Positions 9,165 through 34,013 of a DNA stretch of 64,000 nucleotides are shown here, one piece after another (position 1 is the first letter of the stretch; each line of letters opens with the position of its first letter). The notes under the pieces were generated by a model. It saw nothing but the letters and a program-made list of their open reading frames with translations, ran no database searches and was not told the DNA's origin. A program made the position numbers and the translations under genes. The DNA comes from an uncultured Pseudomonadales bacterium. Lineage in GTDB: Bacteria > Patescibacteriota > Microgenomatia > UBA1400 > PJMF01. Location of the stretch: NCBI GenBank assembly GCA_964633875.1, contig CAZWKL010000002.1, forward strand, positions 23,338 to 87,337, written 5' to 3'.

Positions 9165-10592
9165 TTGGTCATTATTCGCCGATATTTAGATGTCTTTATA
9201 GTAAAGCAAAATAATATGAATTTTAGCTCTTTAATCACTTTTAAGATATTAATATTAACGCAAATTCTGATAATATTATTGGCTTCGTCTATATATAGTA
9301 GTATGGGGGGAACTAAATTGGGGCGGAGAAGTCCTAGTTGGGCTGTTTTTGCCCTTAAGAACGGCAACGGAGCGAATGAAGATTTACTTGGGGAAATATT
9401 TCAATTACCTCTGGAGCGGTTTACTTTGTTCTTACACAAAAATTACTCGATTAGCACCAGACTTTTACCCCTTGCTAACGGTGTTTTAACAGAAAATATA
9501 TTGAACTATCGGGAAAAGTTGGCAATTACCAGACAAGCCAGTTCGGTAAATAGTGGGATACGCTTTTTGTCCCAGGCTATCACCTCAGGCGAAGAAACTC
9601 TCTTTCATTTCAAGCAACTCGGTATAGCTCAAACCAGATCATTCTTGGGGAAGCCGGCGAGCAATTTTTATGCCCAGCTAGTTTTTGGCAAGTTGGCTGA
9701 AGCGGATAATAAACTGCAGCCTTTATTTGCACTTACAGGGATGCAATATGTTTTGGTTGTTTCCGGCTTTCATTTGAATTTGCTCATCAGAACTGTGACA
9801 GCCAGCTTACAATCCCGCGTCGCCAATTGGCAAGTGGCATTTTTGGCAATAGCGGTGGCAATGGCGTATCACGTGGTTGTGGGTTACTCACCGTCGCTTT
9901 TTCGCGCGGCGGTAATGTCGTGTGCGGCCATCGCGGCGCGCTACGTTTTTTTTCGTCAGCACCGCGCCAGCTACTTTTTCGTGCTGATGATAGTAGTATT
10001 ATGCTTGATGTATAGGGAAAAAATCGAGAACGTATCTTTCCAGCTTTCAGCGGCAGCCACCGCCGGCATTATCTATCTAATGCCTTTTTTTACTCGAGTA
10101 GACAGTGTTATGGCTTCGATTGAAAGAGCGGAAATTAGCGGCGGCTCACTGCGTGGCAGTTTGCTGGCTAAGTATTTTGCTTTAACCAAAGAAAGTTTTT
10201 GGATCAGTGTCAGTGTTAATTTGGCTCTTTTGCCTTTATTACTGTATTACTTTGGTGAAGTCAACTTAGTATCCATTGGTATATCAAGCCTTTTCTTCTG
10301 GATGGCCTCGTTGTTGGTGGCTGGTTCCTGGCTTTTGTTGGCGCTGGCGGCAGCCGCCAGCGCCAATAATTTGCTCCATCAACTGCTTCTACCAGGCAGA
10401 GAGCTTGCTTATTACTTCATGGACTTGGTGGAGCTCATTCTGGGATCGTTTGCCAAATTGCCATTGATCGTGGCCGCGGAAAAATTTGAGCCAATTTATA
10501 TATTTTTGTGGTGGAGTGTGTTAGTAGGGTACGTAGTGATTAGGTCGCAAATCGCGGCGCGAAAAAGAGGATACCAAAGGCTAGCGCTATGA
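9165..10592 (+). CDS. comEC: ComEC/Rec2 membrane channel part (competence domain). The N-terminal DUF4131/OB region appears reduced.
   Basis: LFALTGMQYVLVVSGFHLNLLIRTV is the ComEC competence-domain motif (SGxH). Multiple TM helices follow. The stop overlaps the start of the next gene (ATGA). Confidence 0.75.
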   Translation: MVIIRRYLDVFIVKQNNMNFSSLITFKILILTQILIILLASSIYSSMGGTKLGRRSPSWAVFALKNGNGANEDLLGEIFQLPLERFTLFLHKNYSISTRLLPLANGVLTENILNYREKLAITRQASSVNSGIRFLSQAITSGEETLFHFKQLGIAQTRSFLGKPASNFYAQLVFGKLAEADNKLQPLFALTGMQYVLVVSGFHLNLLIRTVTASLQSRVANWQVAFLAIAVAMAYHVVVGYSPSLFRAAVMSCAAIAARYVFFRQHRASYFFVLMIVVLCLMYREKIENVSFQLSAAATAGIIYLMPFFTRVDSVMASIERAEISGGSLRGSLLAKYFALTKESFWISVSVNLALLPLLLYYFGEVNLVSIGISSLFFWMASLLVAGSWLLLALAAAASANNLLHQLLLPGRELAYYFMDLVELILGSFAKLPLIVAAEKFEPIYIFLWWSVLVGYVVIRSQIAARKRGYQRLAL

Positions 10593-24240: not shown

Positions 24241-24531
24241 CTACTCATCTCCTGGTGTAATGCCCAACAACCAGAGAACGGACTCTTTTTTGTAGCGCCG
24301 GTCACCCCGAGAGTTAATCCGGATCGCAGGCAGCTTGCCTCTCTTGCCCCACCGCTTAATCGTCAGGGGGGAAACTCTGAGCAAATCTGCTACTTCGCGG
24401 ACTGTCAGCAGGTCAGGCAGATTATTGATATCGAGCCTACTGGCGTCGTCAGCTCGGCCAGTCCTTTTATCTTCCGCAACTTGCCCATTAGGGTCAATAT
24501 TGCTGATGGTGGTCATAGCAGGTTCGCTCAT
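24241..24531 (-). CDS. Excisionase/MerR-type helix-turn-helix DNA-binding protein (HTH_17-like)
   Basis: LTVREVADLLRVSPLTIKRWGKRGKLPAIRINSRGDRRYKKESV. Confidence 0.65.
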   Translation of the reverse strand: MSEPAMTTISNIDPNGQVAEDKRTGRADDASRLDINNLPDLLTVREVADLLRVSPLTIKRWGKRGKLPAIRINSRGDRRYKKESVLWLLGITPGDE

Positions 24532-24959: not shown

Positions 24960-25349
24960 TTATTTAAGCTCAACGACACAACCAGCCTCTTCAAGGGCTT
25001 TTTTGGCTGCTTCAGCGTCTTCTTTCTTGGCGCCTTCCAAAACGGTTTTGGGCGCTTCTTCAACGAAAGCTTTCGCATCACCCAGACCAAGTTCTGGTTT
25101 GAGCTGGCGGACAGCTTTAATCGCGCCGATCTTGTTAGACCCGGCGTCCTTGAGGATGACGTCGAACTCGTCCTTTTCCTCGACTGCACCGGCCTCGGCC
25201 GCGCCACCTGCTACTGGAGCAGCCATCATTGGGGCTGCCGCGGTTACGCCGAACTCTTCTTCAAGAGCTTTCACCAGTTCAGAAACTTCCATAAGGGAAA
25301 GTTCCTTGACGGCATCGACGATTTTTTGAACATTTTTTGCATCTGCCAT
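24960..25349 (-). CDS. rplL: Ribosomal protein L7/L12
   Basis: [35 protein letters not shown] ... [15 protein letters not shown]. Confidence 0.93.
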
Positions 25350-25384: not shown

Positions 25385-25894
25385 TTAAGCCTCTTTCCTG
25401 TCTGCAATAGCCTGGAGAGCATAGACCAAATTGCGCTGCGAAGCCTGCAAAACATTGACTAAACCCTGAGCCGGACTCTGAATGCGGGCCATCAACATAG
25501 CGATCAGCTCTGTCTTGCTTGGCAGCTTGCTCAGAGCCTCAACTTCCTCGGGGGAGAGGACTTTGTCATCTACAAAACCCTGTTTGATGGTGAGTTTTTC
25601 GTTGTCTTTATGAAATTCAAAGAGCTTTTTCAGGGCAGTCACAGCATCTTCGTAAGAAAAAATGAGCGCGTTCATCCCAGTCAAGGACTCCGCGAACTTG
25701 CCCTTGCCAAGGGCGATATCAATTAGGGTATTTTTGGTCACAAACATTTCGCCGCCGGCCTCTTTCAGCTCGTTGCGCAGCTTCACCTGGTCATTAACAC
25801 TGGTACTGGAGTAATCAACCACCACCGCTGATTTGGTCTTGGCGAGTTTGTCTTTGATAATGGCGACTTGCTCGAGGTTTTTCTTGTTTGGCAT
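25385..25894 (-). CDS. rplJ: Ribosomal protein L10
   Basis: Start set at [57 protein letters not shown]. The longer ORF-track start is preceded by low-complexity non-L10 sequence. Confidence 0.9.
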
Positions 25895-26100
25895 ATTTTT
25901 CCTGTTTTTTTGAGGCCGGGTTTCTGAATTTAGTTGAGTAAAAACAAAAAACACAGCTTGGTACTGTGTTGAACAAAGACGCCTAATTTTTGCACTGCAA
26001 AAGGCTTGGTTTCTCCTCGGCGTGGCTTCTGTCTGCTTCTGTCTGTTTATGGCGGACTGCACGCTGTCTTTGGACAACAGGGGAAATTATAACACAAGTC
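25895..26100 (-). promoter_or_regulatory. Possible L10 (rplJL) autoregulatory leader region
   Basis: About 200 nt of untranslated GC-rich sequence with hairpin potential immediately upstream of rplJ. The call is by position only. Confidence 0.3.
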
Positions 26101-26127
26101 GGGGAAAGAACAAGTTTCACAGACTAA

Positions 26128-26562
26128 TCAAAAGGTCAAAGCTGCTTTTTGATAAAGCTGTCTGAGATTACGATCGAGAGTTAATAATTTGGCTTTTTGT
26201 TCAAGGGCTAATTGAGCATAACTGGAATCGTAGTAGCTGCAGTTGTGTTCCAGAGAAAAACGCAACGTCTGTTCGTAGTTGGGTGAAAGATAGTTAATAG
26301 GGAATGACATAAAAGTTTGGAAGATTGTTTTTGCTCCTCGCTGATCAAGTCTGCCGCGCAAAACACAGGTTCGTAAAATGTTGCCAACTTCAAAAATAAG
26401 TAGTTTTGGAGCCAGAAAATTTATGGCAGGATTTTCTAGAAGTTTGATTAGCTCTGGTCCACGAGTACTAGCCGATAGTTTGCGTTCGTCTGGCAAAAGC
26501 ACGCTGGCTACCACGAATGAATCAACCACGTAGGCAGAGTTGGCTTTATGCTGACCGGCCAT
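26128..26562 (-). CDS. vapC: PIN-domain toxin (VapC family)
   Basis: YVVDSFVVASVLLPDE (N-terminal acidic Asp) and YDSSYAQLALEQKAKLLTLDRNL (C-terminal PIN motif). Confidence 0.8.
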   Translation of the reverse strand: MAGQHKANSAYVVDSFVVASVLLPDERKLSASTRGPELIKLLENPAINFLAPKLLIFEVGNILRTCVLRGRLDQRGAKTIFQTFMSFPINYLSPNYEQTLRFSLEHNCSYYDSSYAQLALEQKAKLLTLDRNLRQLYQKAALTF

Positions 26563-26806
26563 AGTCTCTCAATTCTTGATAATCCAGTTGCTGATTTGAT
26601 TTTTGGATCAAAGACCAATTTTGTTGGATTTTTTGCATTAATTTAGTTCGTTCAGCTTGAGCTTGTTCAAGTTTGGCCTTCCGATAAACCTTGGCGATAG
26701 CAGCGCGAATGAGCTTGCCTTTAGTTACTCCTTGTTGATGGGCAAGTTGAGTGAGTAGTCGATTGTCGTCTTCAGATAGTAGCAAATTGGTTCTGTGGGT
26801 TAGCAT
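26546..26806 (-). CDS. vapB: Ribbon-helix-helix antitoxin (VapB/CopG-like)
   Basis: NLLLSEDDNRLLTQLAHQQGVTKGKLIRAAI. 17-nt overlap with vapC. Confidence 0.7.
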   Translation of the reverse strand: MLTHRTNLLLSEDDNRLLTQLAHQQGVTKGKLIRAAIAKVYRKAKLEQAQAERTKLMQKIQQNWSLIQKSNQQLDYQELRDYGRSA

Positions 26807-26819
26807 AATTATATCTATA

Positions 26820-26831
26820 GTAACATGTTAC
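26820..26831. promoter_or_regulatory. Perfect 12-bp palindrome GTAACATGTTAC 14 nt upstream of the vapB start; candidate operator
   Basis: Seen directly in the sequence. Its position fits TA autoregulation. Confidence 0.4.
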
Positions 26832-26864
26832 TTGATAAGCGTCAAGGAAACCAAATATTCCTTA

Positions 26865-26893
26865 TTGCAAATTAGTCGCGTTTGTTCTATATT
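26865..26893 (+). promoter_or_regulatory. Sigma70-like promoter TTGCAA-N17-TATATT
   Basis: -35 at 26865..26870 and -10 at 26888..26893. The predicted transcription start is about 10 nt before the ATG at 26904. Confidence 0.35.
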
Positions 26894-26903
26894 CAATCAA
26901 CAC

Positions 26904-26981
26904 ATGAGTAAGTGCATGTCTTTCCTCACTATCAAGAACATCCAAACCTGCGTGTCCGGAGGTTGTGACTTGAGTGAATAA
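26904..26981 (+). CDS. Candidate micro-ORF (25 aa, MSKCMSFLTIKNIQTCVSGGCDLSE) between its own promoter and terminator
   Basis: ATG at 26904, stop TAA at 26979..26981, three Cys. Speculative. Confidence 0.25.
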   Translation: MSKCMSFLTIKNIQTCVSGGCDLSE

Positions 26982-27003
26982 AAAAAGACAGCACTTAAAA
27001 CAC

Positions 27004-27027
27004 AGCCTCCGAACCGGAGGCTTTTTT
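27004..27027. terminator. Rho-independent terminator AGCCTCCG-aac-CGGAGGCT followed by TTTTTT (bidirectional-capable)
   Basis: Seen directly in the sequence. 8-bp GC-rich stem followed by a T-run on the plus strand. Confidence 0.6.
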
Positions 27028-27090
27028 GATTTTATTAGGCATTGGCGTTGGTTGAACGCTTGGTTGAGCACCAGTGTTTAAGCAACCTCA

Positions 27091-27303
27091 ATGCAAGGAA
27101 TATCAAGTATGAAAATACAGAAAGGACAGATGCGAGCAGACGATTTAGCTTTGCCATATTCCAAAAAAAGCCTGGAAGCGCTGGCGAATACACTGAAAAT
27201 CCACCGCTCCTTGGTGTGGCTGGATCCGGTCACCGGCAGCCTGAGTGTTAAAAAGGTTGGTCCGATGAGACAGGAAGAAGCAGAAACGAAAGAAGAGGGT
27301 TAA
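27091..27303 (+). CDS. Small hypothetical protein (70 aa)
   Basis: ORF only. Followed by a weak hairpin tctcc..ggaga plus TTTTTT at 27392..27417. Confidence 0.3.
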   Translation: MQGISSMKIQKGQMRADDLALPYSKKSLEALANTLKIHRSLVWLDPVTGSLSVKKVGPMRQEEAETKEEG

Positions 27304-27570
27304 AATTTGCGGCCAGCGTTTGTCCAAGCTACTACTACCACGACTATTATCCCTGGTTAGGGCGGGGTAGTGGTGGCACGAACTTCTCCTCTCTAACCGG
27401 GGAGATTTTTTGTTTTTCTAACCGCGGCCAGCGGAGTCAGAAACAAGGCCACAAGCAAGGCCAAGCAAGGCCAGAAACAGTGCTACAATAGAAAAAGATT
27501 TTGCTGCGGTGGGATGAGTCTGCTTCCTTGGAGGAGTATTGCCGCCGCAACAGACCAAACGAAAGGATTT

Positions 27571-29325
27571 ATGCCCGGAAAAAATAACTTAGAATTGGAA
27601 AAATTGGAAAATTTGCGCCATTCGGCTGCCCATTTGCTAGCCGCCGCCGTATTGGAGTTGCGCCCAGACACCAAACTCACCATTGGCCCTGCCACCGATG
27701 ATGGTTTTTACTACGATTTTGATTTTGCTGAGCCTTTTTCTGAGAGCGAGCTGCCTGCTGTTGAGGCTAAAATGCGTGAGCTGGTCGGTGGCTGGCACGA
27801 TTTTAAGCGGCAAGAAGTTTCTACCGAGGAGGCTTTGGCCCAGTTTGCCGGCAACCCCTACAAGGCAGAGTTGATTGCAGAGTTGGCTGAAGAAGGCCAG
27901 CAAATTTCTTTGTACCGTTCCGGTGATTTTACCGACCTCTGCCGCGGTGGCCACATCGACAACCCCGCCGAGCAGCTTCAGCATTTTGCTTTACTTGCCG
28001 TAGCCGGCGCTTACTGGCGCGGCAGTGAAAAAAATCCCATGCTCACCCGCATTTACGGCACGGCCTTTTTCAGCCAGGAGGAGTTGGCTGCTCACTTGGC
28101 CATGATCGAAGAAGCCAAGAAGCGGGACCACAAAAAACTTGGCAGAGAACTCGATCTATTTACATTTTCCGAAAAAGTTGGTTCGGGTTTGCCTTTATGG
28201 ACGCCTCGAGGCACTTTGCTGCGTGAGATTCTCAACGATTTTGTTTGGGAATTGCGCAGACAAAAAGGCTACGAAAAAGTAGAAATTCCCCATATCACCA
28301 AGAAAGATTTGTACGAAACCAGCGGCCATTGGGACAAGTTTACCAATGAATTGTTTCGCATTACCACCCGCGAAGGACATGAGTTTGCCATGAAACCCAT
28401 GAACTGTCCGCATCACACGCAAATTTTTGACAGAAAAATGCATAGCTACCGCGAAATGCCGCAGCGCTACGCCAACACCACTATGGTTTACCGTGATGAA
28501 CAATCGGGAGAACTGAATGGCCTTGCTCGGGTCCGCTGCATTACTCAAGACGATGCTCATGTTTTTTGTCGCCAATCACAGGTTAAAGAAGAAATGCTGA
28601 AAATTTGGGAGATTGTCGAAAAGTTTTATTCAGCGGTTGGCTTTGAAGTTGAACTCCGCCTCTCACTTTCTGATCCTGAGCAGCCGGAAAAATACCTGGG
28701 CTCAAGAGATTTGTGGGAAAAATCTGAAAATGAACTCAGGGCAATGGTGGCGGAACAAGGAGCTAGCGCAATTGAGCAGTTGGGTGAGGCCGCTTTTTAC
28801 GGACCCAAGCTTGATTTTATGGCTCATGATTCATTGGGTCGCGAGTGGCAAGTTGCCACTATTCAGCTTGATATGAATATGCCCGAAAGCTTTGATCTAA
28901 ATTGTATTAATGAGGACGGAGAAAAAGAGCGGATTGTGATGATCCACGCTGCCATTATGGGTTCAATTGAGCGCTTTCTTTCTATCATTATTGAACACTA
29001 TGCCGGCCGTTTTCCACTTTGGCTCTCTCCGGTGCAGGCAAAAATTCTGCCGGTTTCAGACAAGTTCAATGATTATGGCCAAAAAGTTCTGGCGGCATTG
29101 AAAGAAGCGGATGTGCGGGCGGAACTGGATGACCGCTCTGAACGACTGGGCGCCAAAATTCGCCAGGGAGAAATGGAAAAAGTGCCTTACTTGCTGGTAG
29201 TAGGTGGTCAAGAAGAGGAGGCCGGTACCGTGACCGTGCGCCGGTGCGGTGAAGATCAACAAGAAGCACTCGAACTCAAAGAATTTGTGAGGAAAATAGT
29301 AAACGAAGTTGCAGAACGTCGTTAA
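27571..29325 (+). CDS. thrS: Threonyl-tRNA synthetase lacking the N-terminal TGS domain
   Basis: Start at MPGKNNLEL. Editing-domain motif LRHSAAHLLAAAV (HxxxH). Class II catalytic core. C-terminal anticodon-binding domain. Confidence 0.92.
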   Translation: MPGKNNLELEKLENLRHSAAHLLAAAVLELRPDTKLTIGPATDDGFYYDFDFAEPFSESELPAVEAKMRELVGGWHDFKRQEVSTEEALAQFAGNPYKAELIAELAEEGQQISLYRSGDFTDLCRGGHIDNPAEQLQHFALLAVAGAYWRGSEKNPMLTRIYGTAFFSQEELAAHLAMIEEAKKRDHKKLGRELDLFTFSEKVGSGLPLWTPRGTLLREILNDFVWELRRQKGYEKVEIPHITKKDLYETSGHWDKFTNELFRITTREGHEFAMKPMNCPHHTQIFDRKMHSYREMPQRYANTTMVYRDEQSGELNGLARVRCITQDDAHVFCRQSQVKEEMLKIWEIVEKFYSAVGFEVELRLSLSDPEQPEKYLGSRDLWEKSENELRAMVAEQGASAIEQLGEAAFYGPKLDFMAHDSLGREWQVATIQLDMNMPESFDLNCINEDGEKERIVMIHAAIMGSIERFLSIIIEHYAGRFPLWLSPVQAKILPVSDKFNDYGQKVLAALKEADVRAELDDRSERLGAKIRQGEMEKVPYLLVVGGQEEEAGTVTVRRCGEDQQEALELKEFVRKIVNEVAERR

Positions 29326-29711
29326 TCGCTTGCACTGATTAAATCTACCTGCTTGTATTTCAATATTTTGTGGTCATTGGTAATCAACTGCAGTTTTTCT
29401 GTTTGGGCTTGGCAAATGAGTAATCTATCAAAGGGATCACGATGAATGTTGGGTAAATTTTGTAGTGCCAGAGTGTGATTTAACTTGATGTTTAATATTT
29501 CGAATGCATCAGAAAATAAATCTCTTGGATTTACATCTAACTTGAATTGTTGATGAGAGTTTAACTTGATGCAAATTTCCCAGGCAGAGACGACGCTGAC
29601 AATAACTAAATTTTCGGGATTTTGAATAATACTTCGAATAGAAGTGCTAAGACGCTTATCGTCTGTATGCCACCAGAGAAAGACCTGAGTATCAAGCAAG
29701 TATTTTTTCAT
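29322..29711 (-). CDS. PIN-domain toxin (VapC family)
   Basis: MKKYLLDTQVFLWWHTDDKRL ... QLITNDHKI. The stop overlaps the thrS stop by 4 nt (convergent). Confidence 0.8.
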   Translation of the reverse strand: MKKYLLDTQVFLWWHTDDKRLSTSIRSIIQNPENLVIVSVVSAWEICIKLNSHQQFKLDVNPRDLFSDAFEILNIKLNHTLALQNLPNIHRDPFDRLLICQAQTEKLQLITNDHKILKYKQVDLISASD

Positions 29712-29953
29712 TCTAAATCCGCTAAATCTCCATAAAAGAGCTTGAGAATCTCAGGGGATAGTTCGTTGAAGTTATCTGGAATATTGATTTTGCCTTTGAA
29801 CTGACCGGGTTTTCGCGACTCGGCAAATTTATAAGGAACTAATTTGACAACTGGTTTTCCGGACTTAGCAATAATAACTTCCTCTCCATCTAGTGCCTCG
29901 TTGACTAATTTAGAAAGTTGAGTTTTTGCCTGGTGCATATTAATTATTTTCAT
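29708..29953 (-). CDS. Phd/YefM-family antitoxin
   Basis: MKIINMHQAKTQLSKLVNEALDGEEVIIAKSGKPVVKLVP. ATGA overlap with the PIN gene. Confidence 0.75.
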   Translation of the reverse strand: MKIINMHQAKTQLSKLVNEALDGEEVIIAKSGKPVVKLVPYKFAESRKPGQFKGKINIPDNFNELSPEILKLFYGDLADLE

Positions 29954-29965
29954 ATTGCTGTCTCC

Positions 29966-29988
29966 AAGTTAGCTAACTGGACTAACTT
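29966..29988. promoter_or_regulatory. Inverted repeat AAGTTAG-N9-CTAACTT with an internal palindrome TTAGCTAA upstream of phd; candidate operator
   Basis: Seen directly in the sequence, 13 nt upstream of the phd start. Confidence 0.4.
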
Positions 29989-30078
29989 AGAGTATAGCAA
30001 CAGCTGGTATTAAAGTAAATATACCCACTGTTTCTTGCATCAAGCGTAGAAAAACCCCACTTTACTAATGGAGTTTAT

Positions 30079-30774
30079 CTAAATCTCCACCCGTACGCCG
30101 GGGCTCATGGAAGCCGATAAAGTCAGTTTCACCAGTTTTGGACCAACCGCACTGATTAAGGCCTCGATATTTTCCGCCAATTTATCCGTGTCCATGGAAA
30201 CTTTACCAACAGACACATGCAGAACCGGCTCTTTTTTGTTGGTTTTCAGCACCGTAGTGCCGGCTTCGAGCTCTTTTTTCTTGGCTTTGGGGTTGGGGGT
30301 GAGAGTGCCGCTTTTAGGATTGGGCATCAGGCCTTTGGGACCCAAGACTTTACCGAACTTAGCCAATTTAGGCATATACTGCGGCTCGGCGATCAGCACG
30401 TCAATGCCTGCCACCTCGCCCGCTTCGATTTGAGCCAGGACTTTGTCATCAACAATCACTGCCTTCACTGACTTGCCGGTGCTGTGGGGCAGCGTGACTG
30501 AGCCAACTTGACCAACCTCCCGCACCACCAGAGCGGCAGTAACAGTGCCGTCAAACTTGGAGTAGGAAAGATCCTTCACCAACTCCACGGCATTGACCAC
30601 CTTATATTTTTTGGTTTTGTCCAGTTTAGCGCGATGAGCGCGGTATTTTTTGCTGCGGGATCTTTGCGGCGCGGGTTTCTTGCTGGTTTTTTCAGCTTCA
30701 GCCGGCGTTTCCGCTTCGACAATCTTGACTTCGTCCGTAGTAGCGGACATATCAACGTTTTTTTTGGCTCCCAT
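30079..30774 (-). CDS. rplA: Ribosomal protein L1
   Basis: 231 aa. KKYRAHRAKLDKTKKYKVVNAVELVKDL...GKSVKAVIV. Confidence 0.93.
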   Translation of the reverse strand: MGAKKNVDMSATTDEVKIVEAETPAEAEKTSKKPAPQRSRSKKYRAHRAKLDKTKKYKVVNAVELVKDLSYSKFDGTVTAALVVREVGQVGSVTLPHSTGKSVKAVIVDDKVLAQIEAGEVAGIDVLIAEPQYMPKLAKFGKVLGPKGLMPNPKSGTLTPNPKAKKKELEAGTTVLKTNKKEPVLHVSVGKVSMDTDKLAENIEALISAVGPKLVKLTLSASMSPGVRVEI

Positions 30775-31323: not shown

Positions 31324-31959
31324 TTAAACTTTTTTGACTTGCAGGAAGTCGAGTGTCACCGGAGTTTCCCGGCCGAAAATATTCACCAGCACTTCCACCT
31401 GGCCTTTTTCTTCGTCAATGCCATTGACAGTGCCGAGGAAGTCATTGAACGGCCCATCGGTGATGCGCACCGCTTCGCCCTCGACGTAATCAGCCTTGTA
31501 TTGTGGCGCGGCTTGAGTCATGTACTTCTTGATGGCTTCCACCTCGTGTTTGGGCAGAGCGGTGGGTTTGTTGCCAACGCCGACAAAGCCGGTCACGCCT
31601 TGAGTAGTGCGGACAGCCAGCCAAGAATCATCGGTCAATTCCATTTGTACCAGCATGTAGCCGGGGAAAATTTTCTCACTCACAGTTTTGCGCTGACCGC
31701 GCTTAATCTGAATTTTTTCTTGAGTCGGGATGAGCACAGCCAGAATTTTGCCGGTGAGATTGAGCGTTTCGGCGCGCTGTTTCAAAGTTTCTGCTACTTT
31801 GTTTTCGTGGCCGGAATAGGTATGAACCACATACCAGCGGGCTTTGCGATTTTCCGCTTCCGAAATACGAATAATATTAGGTGAATCAACTTTGACTTCC
31901 TGAATTTCAGGAGGTGTGAGCTGTTGGTTGTCGTTATTGTCTGCCATAATTGCTGCCAT
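31324..31959 (-). CDS. nusG: Transcription termination/antitermination factor NusG
   Basis: KARWYVVHTYSGHENKVAETLKQR (NGN domain). GEAVRITDGPFNDFLGTV (KOW domain). Confidence 0.9.
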   Translation of the reverse strand: MAAIMADNNDNQQLTPPEIQEVKVDSPNIIRISEAENRKARWYVVHTYSGHENKVAETLKQRAETLNLTGKILAVLIPTQEKIQIKRGQRKTVSEKIFPGYMLVQMELTDDSWLAVRTTQGVTGFVGVGNKPTALPKHEVEAIKKYMTQAAPQYKADYVEGEAVRITDGPFNDFLGTVNGIDEEKGQVEVLVNIFGRETPVTLDFLQVKKV

Positions 31960-31964
31960 TCTTT

Positions 31965-32183
31965 CTACAGATTTGTCACTACAAAAGACATCAGTTCTTG
32001 GAAAAAATAGTCCAAGGCACCAATGTAAGCGCCGATAATAATAGTCACCCCGATCACCAGAATTGTCATCTCAATGGTTTGACTTTTATCAGGCCAGGAG
32101 ACTTTTTGCATCTCCCTGCCAACTTGTCGCAAGTAGGTAGTGGGGTTGACCATAGGCAAAGTATTGTAGCAAAGAATGGTCAA
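31965..32183 (-). CDS. secE: Preprotein translocase subunit SecE
   Basis: 72 aa with a single TM. VSWPDKSQTIEMTILVIGVTIIIGAYIGALDYFF. Located immediately upstream of nusG. Confidence 0.75.
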   Translation of the reverse strand: MTILCYNTLPMVNPTTYLRQVGREMQKVSWPDKSQTIEMTILVIGVTIIIGAYIGALDYFFQELMSFVVTNL

Positions 32184-32984: not shown

Positions 32985-33059
32985 GCCCAGATAGTTCAGT
33001 GGTAGAACGCCTTCTTGGTAAGAAGGAGGTCGAGGGTCCGATTCCCTCTCTGGGCTCCA
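32985..33059 (+). tRNA. tRNA-Thr (anticodon GGU), CCA encoded
   Basis: gcccagatagttcagtggtagaacgccttcttggtaagaaggaggtcgagggtccgattccctctctgggctcca. Anticodon loop UUGGUAA. Position anchored to the overlapping ORF-track frame. Confidence 0.88.
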
Positions 33060-33108
33060 GTATTAGTTCAGGAAAGATACTGTGTCTTGCCTCAGCAGTG
33101 GGGCAGAT

Positions 33109-33191
33109 GCCAGGTTACCCAAGCGGCCAACGGGGGCAGACTGTAAATCTGCTGGCTCACGCCTACGTAGGTTCGAATCCTACACCTGGCA
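33109..33191 (+). tRNA. tRNA-Tyr (anticodon GUA), type II long variable arm
   Basis: gccaggttacccaagcggccaacgggggcagactgtaaatctgctggctcacgcctacgtaggttcgaatcctacacctggca. Anticodon loop CUGUAAA. Confidence 0.88.
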
Positions 33192-33670
33192 CTTTGATAA
33201 TAGTTTGATAATAGAACGATTCTTTTCTAAGTTAATCAGCGTAAATATCTTCTCGAGTTAAAGTATCAAGAGGAGAACCGATATCTTTAGACTGAAAAAT
33301 TATTTTCTTTTTATTCTTTTTAGTTTTTCCGACTATATACCTTTTTTGGTTTTTTGGTGTTTGTGGTAGCTTTGGTTAATTTCATAAAACATATTATGAC
33401 ATAAATATATGGCAGGATTGATTCCTGTAGTTTATAATGCACGCACCTTGCATATAATGGAGAAGATGGTAATAAAATAGCGGAATGAAGTTTTTGATTT
33501 TGGGATTACTGAGGCCGCCGCCTCAAAAAACCAATCAGCGCGAAGAAAGACAATTTTTCCGAGTGAGCTTGATCCGCCGTCGGGAAAACTGGGAAATAAA
33601 CCCATTTTTTATAGGCGGATCATGCAGGCCGGTGTTGCTGGCCGGCACTCAGAAAAATTGTTTTCTGAAC

Positions 33671-33744
33671 GCCATCTTAGCTCAGTTGGTTAGAGCGACG
33701 GTTTTGTAAACCGTAGGTCCGGGGTTCGAATCCCCGAGATGGCT
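33671..33744 (+). tRNA. tRNA-Thr (anticodon UGU)
   Basis: gccatcttagctcagttggttagagcgacggttttgtaaaccgtaggtccggggttcgaatccccgagatggct. Anticodon loop UUUGUAA. Confidence 0.88.
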
Positions 33745-33809
33745 CAAGAGAGCAGCTTGTGTTACAATACTTCCTCTTGAGTTTACGAAAGCAAAATAAT
33801 AAGGAAAAT

Positions 33810-34013
33810 ATGGCAAAAGCAAAAAAAGGACCAAGACAAATCGCCGGTTTAAAGTGTGATGCTTGTGGCTCGTTCAACTACTTGACCGAATACAACAAAA
33901 ATAACGAAACCTTGATGAAACAGACCAAGAACGTGAGTACTTTTCCCCTCAAGAAATACTGTAACGTTTGCCGCGCTCATCAATCTCACGTGATGGCTAA
34001 AAAACTGAAGTAG
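33810..34013 (+). CDS. rpmG: Ribosomal protein L33
   Basis: MAKAKKGPRQIAGLKCDACGSFNYLTEYNKNNETLMKQTKNVSTFPLKKYCNVCRAHQSH. Zn-ribbon CxxC...CxxC. Confidence 0.85.
   Translation: MAKAKKGPRQIAGLKCDACGSFNYLTEYNKNNETLMKQTKNVSTFPLKKYCNVCRAHQSHVMAKKLK

Follow-up and report, generated by a model that had tools for sequence, protein, structure and literature searches.

A probably old, inherited placement of thrS between rplKA and rplJL in a Microgenomatia bacterium, with interchangeable toxin-antitoxin cargo and a predicted threonine attenuator

In an uncultured bacterium of the Microgenomatia, the threonine--tRNA ligase gene thrS lies between the ribosomal protein genes rplKA and rplJL, on the opposite strand, and is flanked by two toxin-antitoxin (TA) modules. 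We analysed this locus in a window of 64,000 nucleotides (64 kb; contig CAZWKL010000002.1 of assembly GCA_964633875.1, positions 23,338 to 87,337). Genes were called from the list of open reading frames (ORFs) and from Pfam and NCBIfam profile searches, and labels such as L081 denote loci retrieved from relatives. With high confidence, we read the arrangement as an old, inherited placement of thrS at an operon boundary, with TA genes as later, interchangeable cargo. The minus strand carries, in order, secE-nusG-rplK-rplA, a Phd-PIN pair, thrS (on the plus strand), a ribbon-helix-helix (RHH)-PIN pair and rplJ-rplL. Identification of thrS (27514-29325, plus strand) was clear, with a TIGR00418 score of 682 bits (cutoff 384) and Pfam matches to tRNA_SAD, tRNA-synt_2b and HGTP_anticodon. 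Ribosomal protein L1 is encoded by rplA (30079-30774, minus strand; Pfam Ribosomal_L1, 89.6 bits), which is not directly followed by rplJ (25385-25894, minus strand; Pfam Ribosomal_L10): the two genes are 4184 bp apart in the window, and every clade member has a gap of 2.6-7.4 kb between them. This map confirmed the preliminary description of the locus, which had reported a rplKA-rplJL split with two PIN-toxin modules flanking an opposite-strand thrS.

The best named relatives of this threonyl-tRNA synthetase (ThrRS) belong to Woesebacteria, Roizmanbacteria and Microgenomates, which places the window in the candidate phyla radiation (CPR/Patescibacteria), in a Woesebacteria-like bacterium among the Microgenomates. 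No close ThrRS relative was present among GTDB representative genomes, where the top match was 67% identical; a protein collection contained relatives at 99, 89, 81, 78 and 69% identity. Comparison of the retrieved loci showed that the order rplL-rplJ / small ORF plus thrS / rplA-rplK-nusG-secE is common to relatives at 99% to 59% ThrRS identity. Loci at ~99-100% (L086, L097-L099 and L090, from at least three independent samples) are arranged as in the window. At 89%, L081-83 (GCA_964515115.1) keep the RHH-PIN pair (91-93% amino-acid identity, the RHH-like antitoxin being 93% identical in L081), with an AbiEii pair added between it and thrS and a plus-strand MazE-PIN pair instead of Phd-PIN. 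The order in L084/L085 (81%) is rplL-rplJ, small ORF, thrS, rplA-rplK-nusG-secE, with no TA genes, and L089 (Woesebacteria GCA_017999345.1; 69%) has the same order, again with no TA genes. More distantly, the order is kept in a JGI 3300072015 contig (68%; HD protein and MazE-PIN in the gaps), in L091 (61%; PIN+Phd, ParE+Phd and MazE+PIN), in L094 (61%; membrane protein and HD protein) and in L096 (59%; Fic and others, RHH+PIN). L092/L093 (62%) show rplL-rplJ, small ORF and thrS, with rplA outside the retrieved stretch and with PIN+Phd and an HD protein (L093) in the gaps; these loci and L095 agree with the common order as far as their contigs extend. Since the TA-free loci L084/L085 and L089 keep the same order, the split was already present in the ancestor of the clade and does not depend on TA genes. 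The synteny comparison proposed in the preliminary description thus turned against the two roles which that text had offered for the TA genes, as invaders together with thrS or as stabilisers of the region.

TA content was unlike between every pair of relatives, and three gains or losses of TA genes separate the window from L081 at 89% identity. The Phd-PIN pair of the window was seen only in near-identical genomes, whereas the RHH-PIN pair is also present in L081. Because TA content varies between all pairs of relatives, the TA genes did not arrive with thrS. A single entry of vapBC, thrS and phd-vapC into rplKAJL as a composite mobile cassette would account for the tight flanking of thrS by TA genes, for the overlap of the PIN2 and thrS stop codons, and for the foreign composition of the TA genes. 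Such an event is nonetheless very improbable, as relatives with thrS at the same site carry no TA genes or other ones, the two TA pairs differ in phyletic depth (L081 has RHH-PIN and not Phd-PIN), and neither the composition of thrS nor the flanks of the block fit a mobile unit.

To compare composition, 30 long host genes served as reference (mean ± SD: GC 0.484 ± 0.024, GC at third codon positions (GC3) 0.523 ± 0.059, codon fit 0.084 ± 0.036). With GC 0.484, GC3 0.487 and codon fit 0.098, thrS is native to the host, and the codon-usage comparison that had been suggested for this gene therefore gave a host-like result. The four TA genes are foreign (GC 0.35-0.42, GC3 0.34-0.37, codon fit -0.065 to +0.02), single-gene GC being 0.37 for the Phd/YefM gene, 0.35 for PIN2 and 0.42 for PIN1 (PIN1 GC3 0.37). 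No integrase or transposase was found among the ORFs and profile matches at the locus, and a search of the surroundings of the TA cassettes, and of the block as a whole, for target-site duplications and for direct or inverted repeats returned short chance-level matches only. The thrS block thus has none of the features expected of a mobile element or genomic island, namely a mobility gene, repeats at its flanks and a composition that is foreign throughout.

Alternatively, the TA modules could be kept by addiction and so stabilise the rearranged region against loss or rearrangement. Recurrence of TA cassettes in both gaps in several lineages is in keeping with such a role, as is the fact that the two PIN genes recovered from the 64-kb window both map here. 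It is contradicted by the TA-free genomes at 81% and 69% identity, in which the order is equally conserved, by the fast turnover of TA genes, and by the essential nature of thrS and the ribosomal genes, which require no addiction module. TA genes are not needed to hold the order, since it is just as stable without them, and we regard stabilisation as quite unlikely.

The source of the window is evidently a metagenome-assembled genome, and repeated TA families can cause misjoins, so that chimeric joins where the TA-thrS block meets the ribosomal genes had to be considered. The order of the window was recovered in contigs of ENA ERZ27247346 (152 kb), Logan SRR13001968 (17 kb), Logan SRR8449813 (28 kb) and JGI Ga0172382; in all, three samples yielded at least five independent contigs that agree with it, and many diverged relatives do so too. 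As independent contigs give an identical order, misassembly at the junctions is excluded, and the probability left to a chimera is negligible.

The units on either side of thrS are autonomous. Where rplA ends, a hairpin and its U tract (30047-30081, minus strand; fold -15.6 kcal/mol, z = -3.3) form a terminator that closes the rplKA unit, and in TA-free L084 the 66-nt thrS-rplA spacer is a bidirectional terminator. On the other side, rplJ is preceded by a -10 box, TATAAT (26086-26091, minus strand), located 37 nt from the end of the upstream PIN1 gene. Between this box and rplJ lie a candidate L10 leader (Rfam RF00557; element with -10 box, 25936-26091, minus strand) and a terminator detected by terminator scan (25950-25970, minus strand). 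The RF00557 match is full-length and scores 23.2 bits in the window (local E = 0.057) and 29.5 bits in L084, against a gathering threshold (GA) of 44. Its core CCAAAGACAGCGTGC...CACGCCGAGG was present in 7/8 distinct relatives, L096 having the one-base variant CACGCCTAGG, so that the position 5′ of rplJ, the conserved core and the terminator are all as in an L10 leader. Compared with the Bacillus-type L10 leader, the element shares the site upstream of rplJ, the core CC.AAGACAGC...GCCGAGG and the terminator hairpin with U tract, but scores 23-30 bits against the GA of 44 and has a longer internal insert. The promoter and leader of rplJL, which the preliminary description had proposed to look for, are thus in place. 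Because rplA keeps its terminator and rplJL its own promoter and L10-leader-type attenuator, no operon was broken.

Outgroup loci place the thrS gene in a different context. In Roizmanbacteria CP065004.1 and in L101 (65-66% identity), thrS stands in the classical neighbourhood thrS-(x)-thrC-infC-rpmI-rplT-pheST, and in both it has a Thr-rich leader. None of infC, rpmI, rplT and pheST occurs in the 64-kb window. Because Roizmanbacteria and L101 retain the classical context, thrS was relocated in an ancestor of the clade of the window. The earlier suggestion of a relocated thrS therefore holds on this deep scale and fails only as a joint arrival with the TA genes. Compared with the thrS-infC-rpmI-rplT-pheST cluster of most bacteria and of CP065004.1, the window has an orthologous thrS (64% identity) with a Thr-rich leader peptide and terminator ahead of it; it differs in that thrS left the cluster and gained a unit of promoter, short upstream ORF (uORF), terminator and orphan ORF, described below.

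We propose that thrS, together with its threonine leader-peptide attenuator, left the thrS-infC-rpmI-rplT-pheST neighbourhood in the ancestor of the clade and would have landed on the opposite strand, at the border of two autonomous units, secE-nusG-rplKA and rplJL. The move would have broken neither unit, and the resulting order would have been passed on vertically since. The two short non-coding gaps flanking thrS may then have acted as permissive landing sites, in which lineages separately gained or lost differing type II TA cassettes and other small cargo. Each TA pair, with its own promoter and palindromic operator, would presumably be repressed by its own antitoxin and persist through addiction. 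When eight PINs of the locus family were combined into a profile, it found no more than two PIN ORFs in the 64-kb window, both in the 4.2-kb interval; this count and the recurrent, varied TA cargo mark the two gaps next to thrS as hot spots of insertion. A likely cause is the tight packing of the genome, which would leave few other intergenic sites of divergent or convergent type.

Several points weigh against this account or parts of it. L087/L088 (78%) keep thrS convergent with rplA, yet without rplJL upstream, and in four other CPR genomes thrS lies 2.5-5.5 kb from rplK-nusG-secE with no rplA between; the history therefore involved more than one rearrangement. That thrS entered the ribosomal cluster, rather than rplJL moving to thrS, is concluded from only two outgroup loci and the usual gene order of bacteria, and both this direction and the timing of the move are inferences. 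The census of PIN genes used a home-made profile, which divergent PINs may escape, PIN1 scrapes past its Pfam threshold while its antitoxin is without an above-threshold family match, and the L10-leader match lies under the Rfam gathering score. As a separate observation, rplK in the other CPR genomes L007, L011, L013 and L034 is without rplA, rplJ or rplL after it in the retrieved region (in L007, tmk and gatB come after rplK); as these followers are lacking, the rplKAJL cluster has been repeatedly disrupted in CPR bacteria.

Both TA modules have the organization of VapBC-type systems, with a PIN toxin that retains its acidic residues and a small antitoxin gene that lies upstream and overlaps it. 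PIN toxin 1 (PIN1; 144 aa; 26128-26562, minus strand) matches PF01850 at 24.9 bits, barely over the GA of 23.6, and its RHH-like (VapB-like) antitoxin (86 aa; 26546-26806, minus strand) gave sub-threshold matches only (PSK_trans_fac, E = 7e-4, below GA; RelB, E = 0.035). PIN toxin 2 (PIN2, VapC-like; 129 aa; 29322-29711, minus strand) matches PF01850 at 63.7 bits (GA 23.6), and its Phd/YefM-family antitoxin (81 aa; 29708-29953, minus strand) matches PF02604 at 45.8 bits (GA 29.8) and TIGR01552 at 36.7 bits. In the PIN alignment all four acidic residues are kept in both toxins (D14, E58, D112 and D130 in PIN1; D7, E45, D95 and D113 in PIN2), and the antitoxin genes overlap the toxin genes by 17 nt (RHH-PIN) and 4 nt (Phd-PIN). 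With overlapping upstream antitoxin, four acidic PIN residues, promoter palindrome and low GC, the modules are ordinary members of the VapBC type; they are notable only for their repeated accumulation at the thrS locus.

The palindromes reported earlier for the two modules were both recovered exactly. Promoter scans found a single promoter-like site upstream of each TA pair: TTGACG-17-TACTAT, with a TG, for RHH-PIN (26817-26845, minus strand), and TTTACT-17-TATACT, with an extended TG, for Phd-PIN (29991-30019, minus strand). The palindrome GTAACATGTTAC (26820-26831) overlaps the -10 box and spacer of the former and is unchanged in L081 despite diverged flanks. The inverted repeat AAGTTAG-N9-CTAACTT (29966-29988), a putative operator also written as AAGTTAGCTAACT...CTAACTT, lies just downstream of the Phd-PIN -10 box and contains the perfect palindrome AGTTAGCTAACT (29967-29978). 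Perfect 12-bp palindromes are not rare (18 in the window against 15.6 expected); it is the position at the TA -10 boxes, which both overlap or abut, that makes these two meaningful. Operator binding, autoregulation and toxin activity of the TA pairs are predictions from sequence.

Proximity to translation genes also raised the possibility that the PIN modules are functionally coupled to them, for example through a tRNA- or rRNA-targeting VapC co-regulated with thrS or rplJL. The stop codons of PIN2 and thrS overlap at 29322-29325 (TTAA) and no terminator follows thrS, so that thrS transcription should run antisense into Phd-PIN; such read-through from thrS into PIN2-phd is one form that coupling could take. 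Likewise, the short distance from the end of PIN1 to the rplJ -10 box makes read-through into rplJL possible, and L091 and L093 likewise have an identically oriented PIN gene immediately ahead of the rplJ promoter. However, TA type, strand and position vary by lineage, and some lineages are without any TA genes. This pattern better matches opportunistic insertion than a selected functional link, and we consider coupling quite unlikely. The striking break in a near-universal cluster is best read as an old, neutral relocation at an operon boundary; a streamlined CPR genome has few intergenic sites open to insertion, and TA genes gather there with no causal role. The case cautions against inferring function from TA adjacency.

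The relocated gene carries a predicted regulatory region of its own. The true start of thrS is probably at 27571 rather than 27514, that is, 19 codons later: in L081 and L084 the motif AAAGGATT(T/A)ATG precedes the start of thrS, and the equivalent position of the window is 27571. ThrRS homologues are 578-595 aa long, and all CPR homologues (~580 aa) are without the N-terminal TGS domain. Upstream of thrS, we identified a threonine leader ORF, (L)RPAFVQATTTTTIIPG* (27307-27360, plus strand), with five consecutive Thr codons (27331-27345). It runs into a candidate attenuator RNA (27350-27415, plus strand), in which an anti-terminator helix (27350-27403) competes with a terminator hairpin (27385-27405) followed by a U tract. 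Homologous leaders with 5-7 Thr were found in L084, L089, L091, L093, L094, L100 and L101; leader peptides of relatives read MKISCLTTTTTTIPL, MKVKSFVTTTTTTTFPV, MNQILFVTTTSTTTHPI and MIHILFSTTATTTKIPI, and that of Roizmanbacteria, at the ancestral thrS locus, MITTTDRITTATDIIR.

Constrained folding gave the states expected of an attenuator. In the free RNA, the terminator formed along with the 1:2 helix; stalling of a ribosome at the Thr codons freed the 2:3 anti-terminator, and a ribosome at the stop codon restored the terminator. The RNAalifold consensus was the anti-terminator, with 19 pairs, 4 of them with compensatory changes; in the terminator alignment, the 5′ arm of the window is in a different register from the other sequences. 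In silico, the region thus combines an ORF rich in the cognate codon with a terminator and a mutually exclusive anti-terminator, and the folding models suggest attenuation that would respond to charged tRNA-Thr. In L081 (9838-9960, compared with 27304-27500 of the window), ~100 nt are deleted, among them the Thr codons and the terminator of the attenuator, and control by Thr should thus be lost for thrS of this relative. Promoter-like -10 boxes lie downstream of the attenuator terminator and ahead of thrS: TGcTACAAT in the window (27478-27486), TGATACAAT in L084 (near 9950) and TATAAT in L089 (near 9945). If active, they would allow a basal level of expression that bypasses the attenuator. Relatives have a comparable extended -10 box, TGATAGAAT or TGATAAAAT, ahead of the Thr leader.

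Other modes of control were considered for this region. A GGTGGCAC-like motif suggested a T-box upstream of thrS, but no Rfam T-box match was obtained even at E <= 5, and the leader-peptide attenuator explains the region. A mimic of the tRNA-Thr anticodon arm, as in the E. coli-type thrS operator, was likewise rejected: the hairpin loops before thrS are 4-5 nt long and, by eye, not anticodon-like. No Rfam family covers the Thr attenuator, the only matches being weak ones to Phe_leader or Trp_leader.

To determine how common such leaders are, we searched for Thr-rich uORFs (at least 4 Thr in 8 codons, at most 350 nt upstream of thrS) and found them on the sense strand of 13/88 loci, against 0/88 in the reverse-complement control. 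Further Thr-rich uORFs lie just past 350 nt in Latescibacterota and Gemmatimonadota. Runs of 5-10 Thr codons in short ORFs upstream of thrS were seen in Latescibacterota, Gemmatimonadota, Dehalococcoidia and other CPR; loci with such runs are L054, L061, L071 and L073 (near 9660-9700), L070, L014 (9944-9961) and L018 (192-209), the peptide of L061 being MLTVASAPCLSGFPSGPTATTTTTTTTTTMCAG*. Control of thrS by Thr leaders seems to be widespread and to fall outside Rfam coverage.

Leader attenuation of pheST (E. coli pheM-pheST) is known in gamma-proteobacteria. Leader-peptide attenuation has also been described for trpS and leuS in Streptomyces (PMC1262725), and a thrL-thrS leader candidate with two Thr codons for S. 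lividans (PMC8079986). The thrS element is a further case of this already known type of control of synthetase genes. As in the classical synthetase attenuators, a short ORF contains consecutive cognate codons, and an anti-terminator and a terminator hairpin that exclude each other stand between this ORF and the gene. Unlike these, it occurs in CPR bacteria, has a terminator with a clear U tract and is preceded by a small protein gene and by another unit of uORF and terminator; its 5-7 Thr codons compare with 2 in S. lividans thrL-thrS.

The interval 26807-27513, about 700 nt, is thus not empty: besides one promoter and a conserved small ORF, it holds two terminators and two short leader ORFs. 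Promoter P1 (TTGCAA-17-TATATT; 26865-26893, plus strand; promoter scan) is followed by uORF1 (25 codons, MSKCMSFLTIKNIQTCVSGGCDLSE; 26904-26981, plus strand) and by a strong intrinsic terminator with a T run (27004-27022, plus strand; terminator scan; whole unit 26865-27028). The P1-uORF1-terminator unit is kept in L081, L084, L089, L091, L093, L094 and L096. Across relatives, uORF1 has 22-29 codons and the motif I-(K/Q)-x-I-(Q/K), and third-position changes in its T-I-K-x-I-Q motif are synonymous, indicating that uORF1 is translated. The P1/uORF1 region weakly resembles Rfam Phe_leader (29 bits, GA 55). As a clean classical attenuator, uORF1 was rejected: constrained folds gave an anti-terminator in the window, L081, L089 and L094 but not in L084, L091, L093 and L096.

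The small ORF (27109-27303, plus strand) encodes an orphan protein of 64 aa as called, probably 57 aa from ATG 27130. Alignments gave the motif LPYS+K+LE.LA.TLKIHRS.VWLDPV in proteins of about 54-64 aa, which form 30 clusters, all hypothetical, in a collection of 5.8 billion proteins. They are restricted to the Woesebacteria/Microgenomates clade and always lie just upstream of thrS; in L096 the end of the small ORF overlaps the thrS start, and the orphan protein is translationally coupled to thrS. No Pfam or NCBIfam match was obtained at E <= 1. An AlphaFold2 model consists of a helix and a beta-hairpin (predicted local distance difference test, pLDDT, 73), and a Foldseek search against the Protein Data Bank (PDB) returned nothing under E = 0.8. 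The idea that the small ORF is a detached ThrRS TGS domain was dropped, since there is no profile match, the modelled helix and hairpin are not a beta-grasp, and no PDB fold matches.

We tentatively suggest, with more doubt than confidence, that P1, the uORF1-terminator and the orphan protein form an undescribed, clade-specific control layer atop the older Thr-leader attenuator. In such a layer, the orphan protein could be a trans-acting partner or regulator of ThrRS or its mRNA, and uORF1 a second ribosome-sensing leader. To our knowledge, almost nothing is known of gene regulation in CPR bacteria. The Thr attenuator, the L10-leader-like element and the thrS-linked orphan protein offer testable handles on CPR translational homeostasis.

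The remaining genes of the cluster follow, all on the minus strand. The rplKA side starts as a transcription unit with secE (31965-32183; called at the same position in relatives) and nusG (31324-31959; Pfam NusG/KOW), followed by rplK for ribosomal protein L11 (30847-31293; Pfam Ribosomal_L11_N and Ribosomal_L11); rplL (24960-25349; Pfam Ribosomal_L12_N and Ribosomal_L12) completes the other side. Genes, order, location on one strand, separate rplKA and rplJL units and a leader of L10-responsive type before rplJL (here L10-leader-like) are shared with the E. coli-type secE-nusG / rplKA / rplJL-rpoBC cluster. Unlike in that cluster, a 4.2-kb block with thrS on the opposite strand separates rplA from rplJ, and rplL is followed by HTH_17/MerR-like and WecG-family glycosyltransferase genes, not by rpoBC. 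Neither rpoB nor rpoC is present in the 64-kb window.

The HTH_17/MerR-like (excisionase-type) gene (24241-24531, minus strand) stands downstream of rplL, where rpoBC would be; as it is kept at the same position in all relatives, it is a resident gene and no remnant of a mobile element. The L1 protein has a Lys-/Ala-rich, divergent N-terminal extension, Pfam matching residues 124-218 only, and ranges from 231 to 270 aa across relatives. Beside secE-nusG, on the opposite strand and with no tuf between, lie tRNA-Thr(GGT), tRNA-Tyr, tRNA-Thr(TGT) and then rpmG (L33), at 32985-34013, a further deviation from the usual tRNA-tufB-secE-nusG layout.

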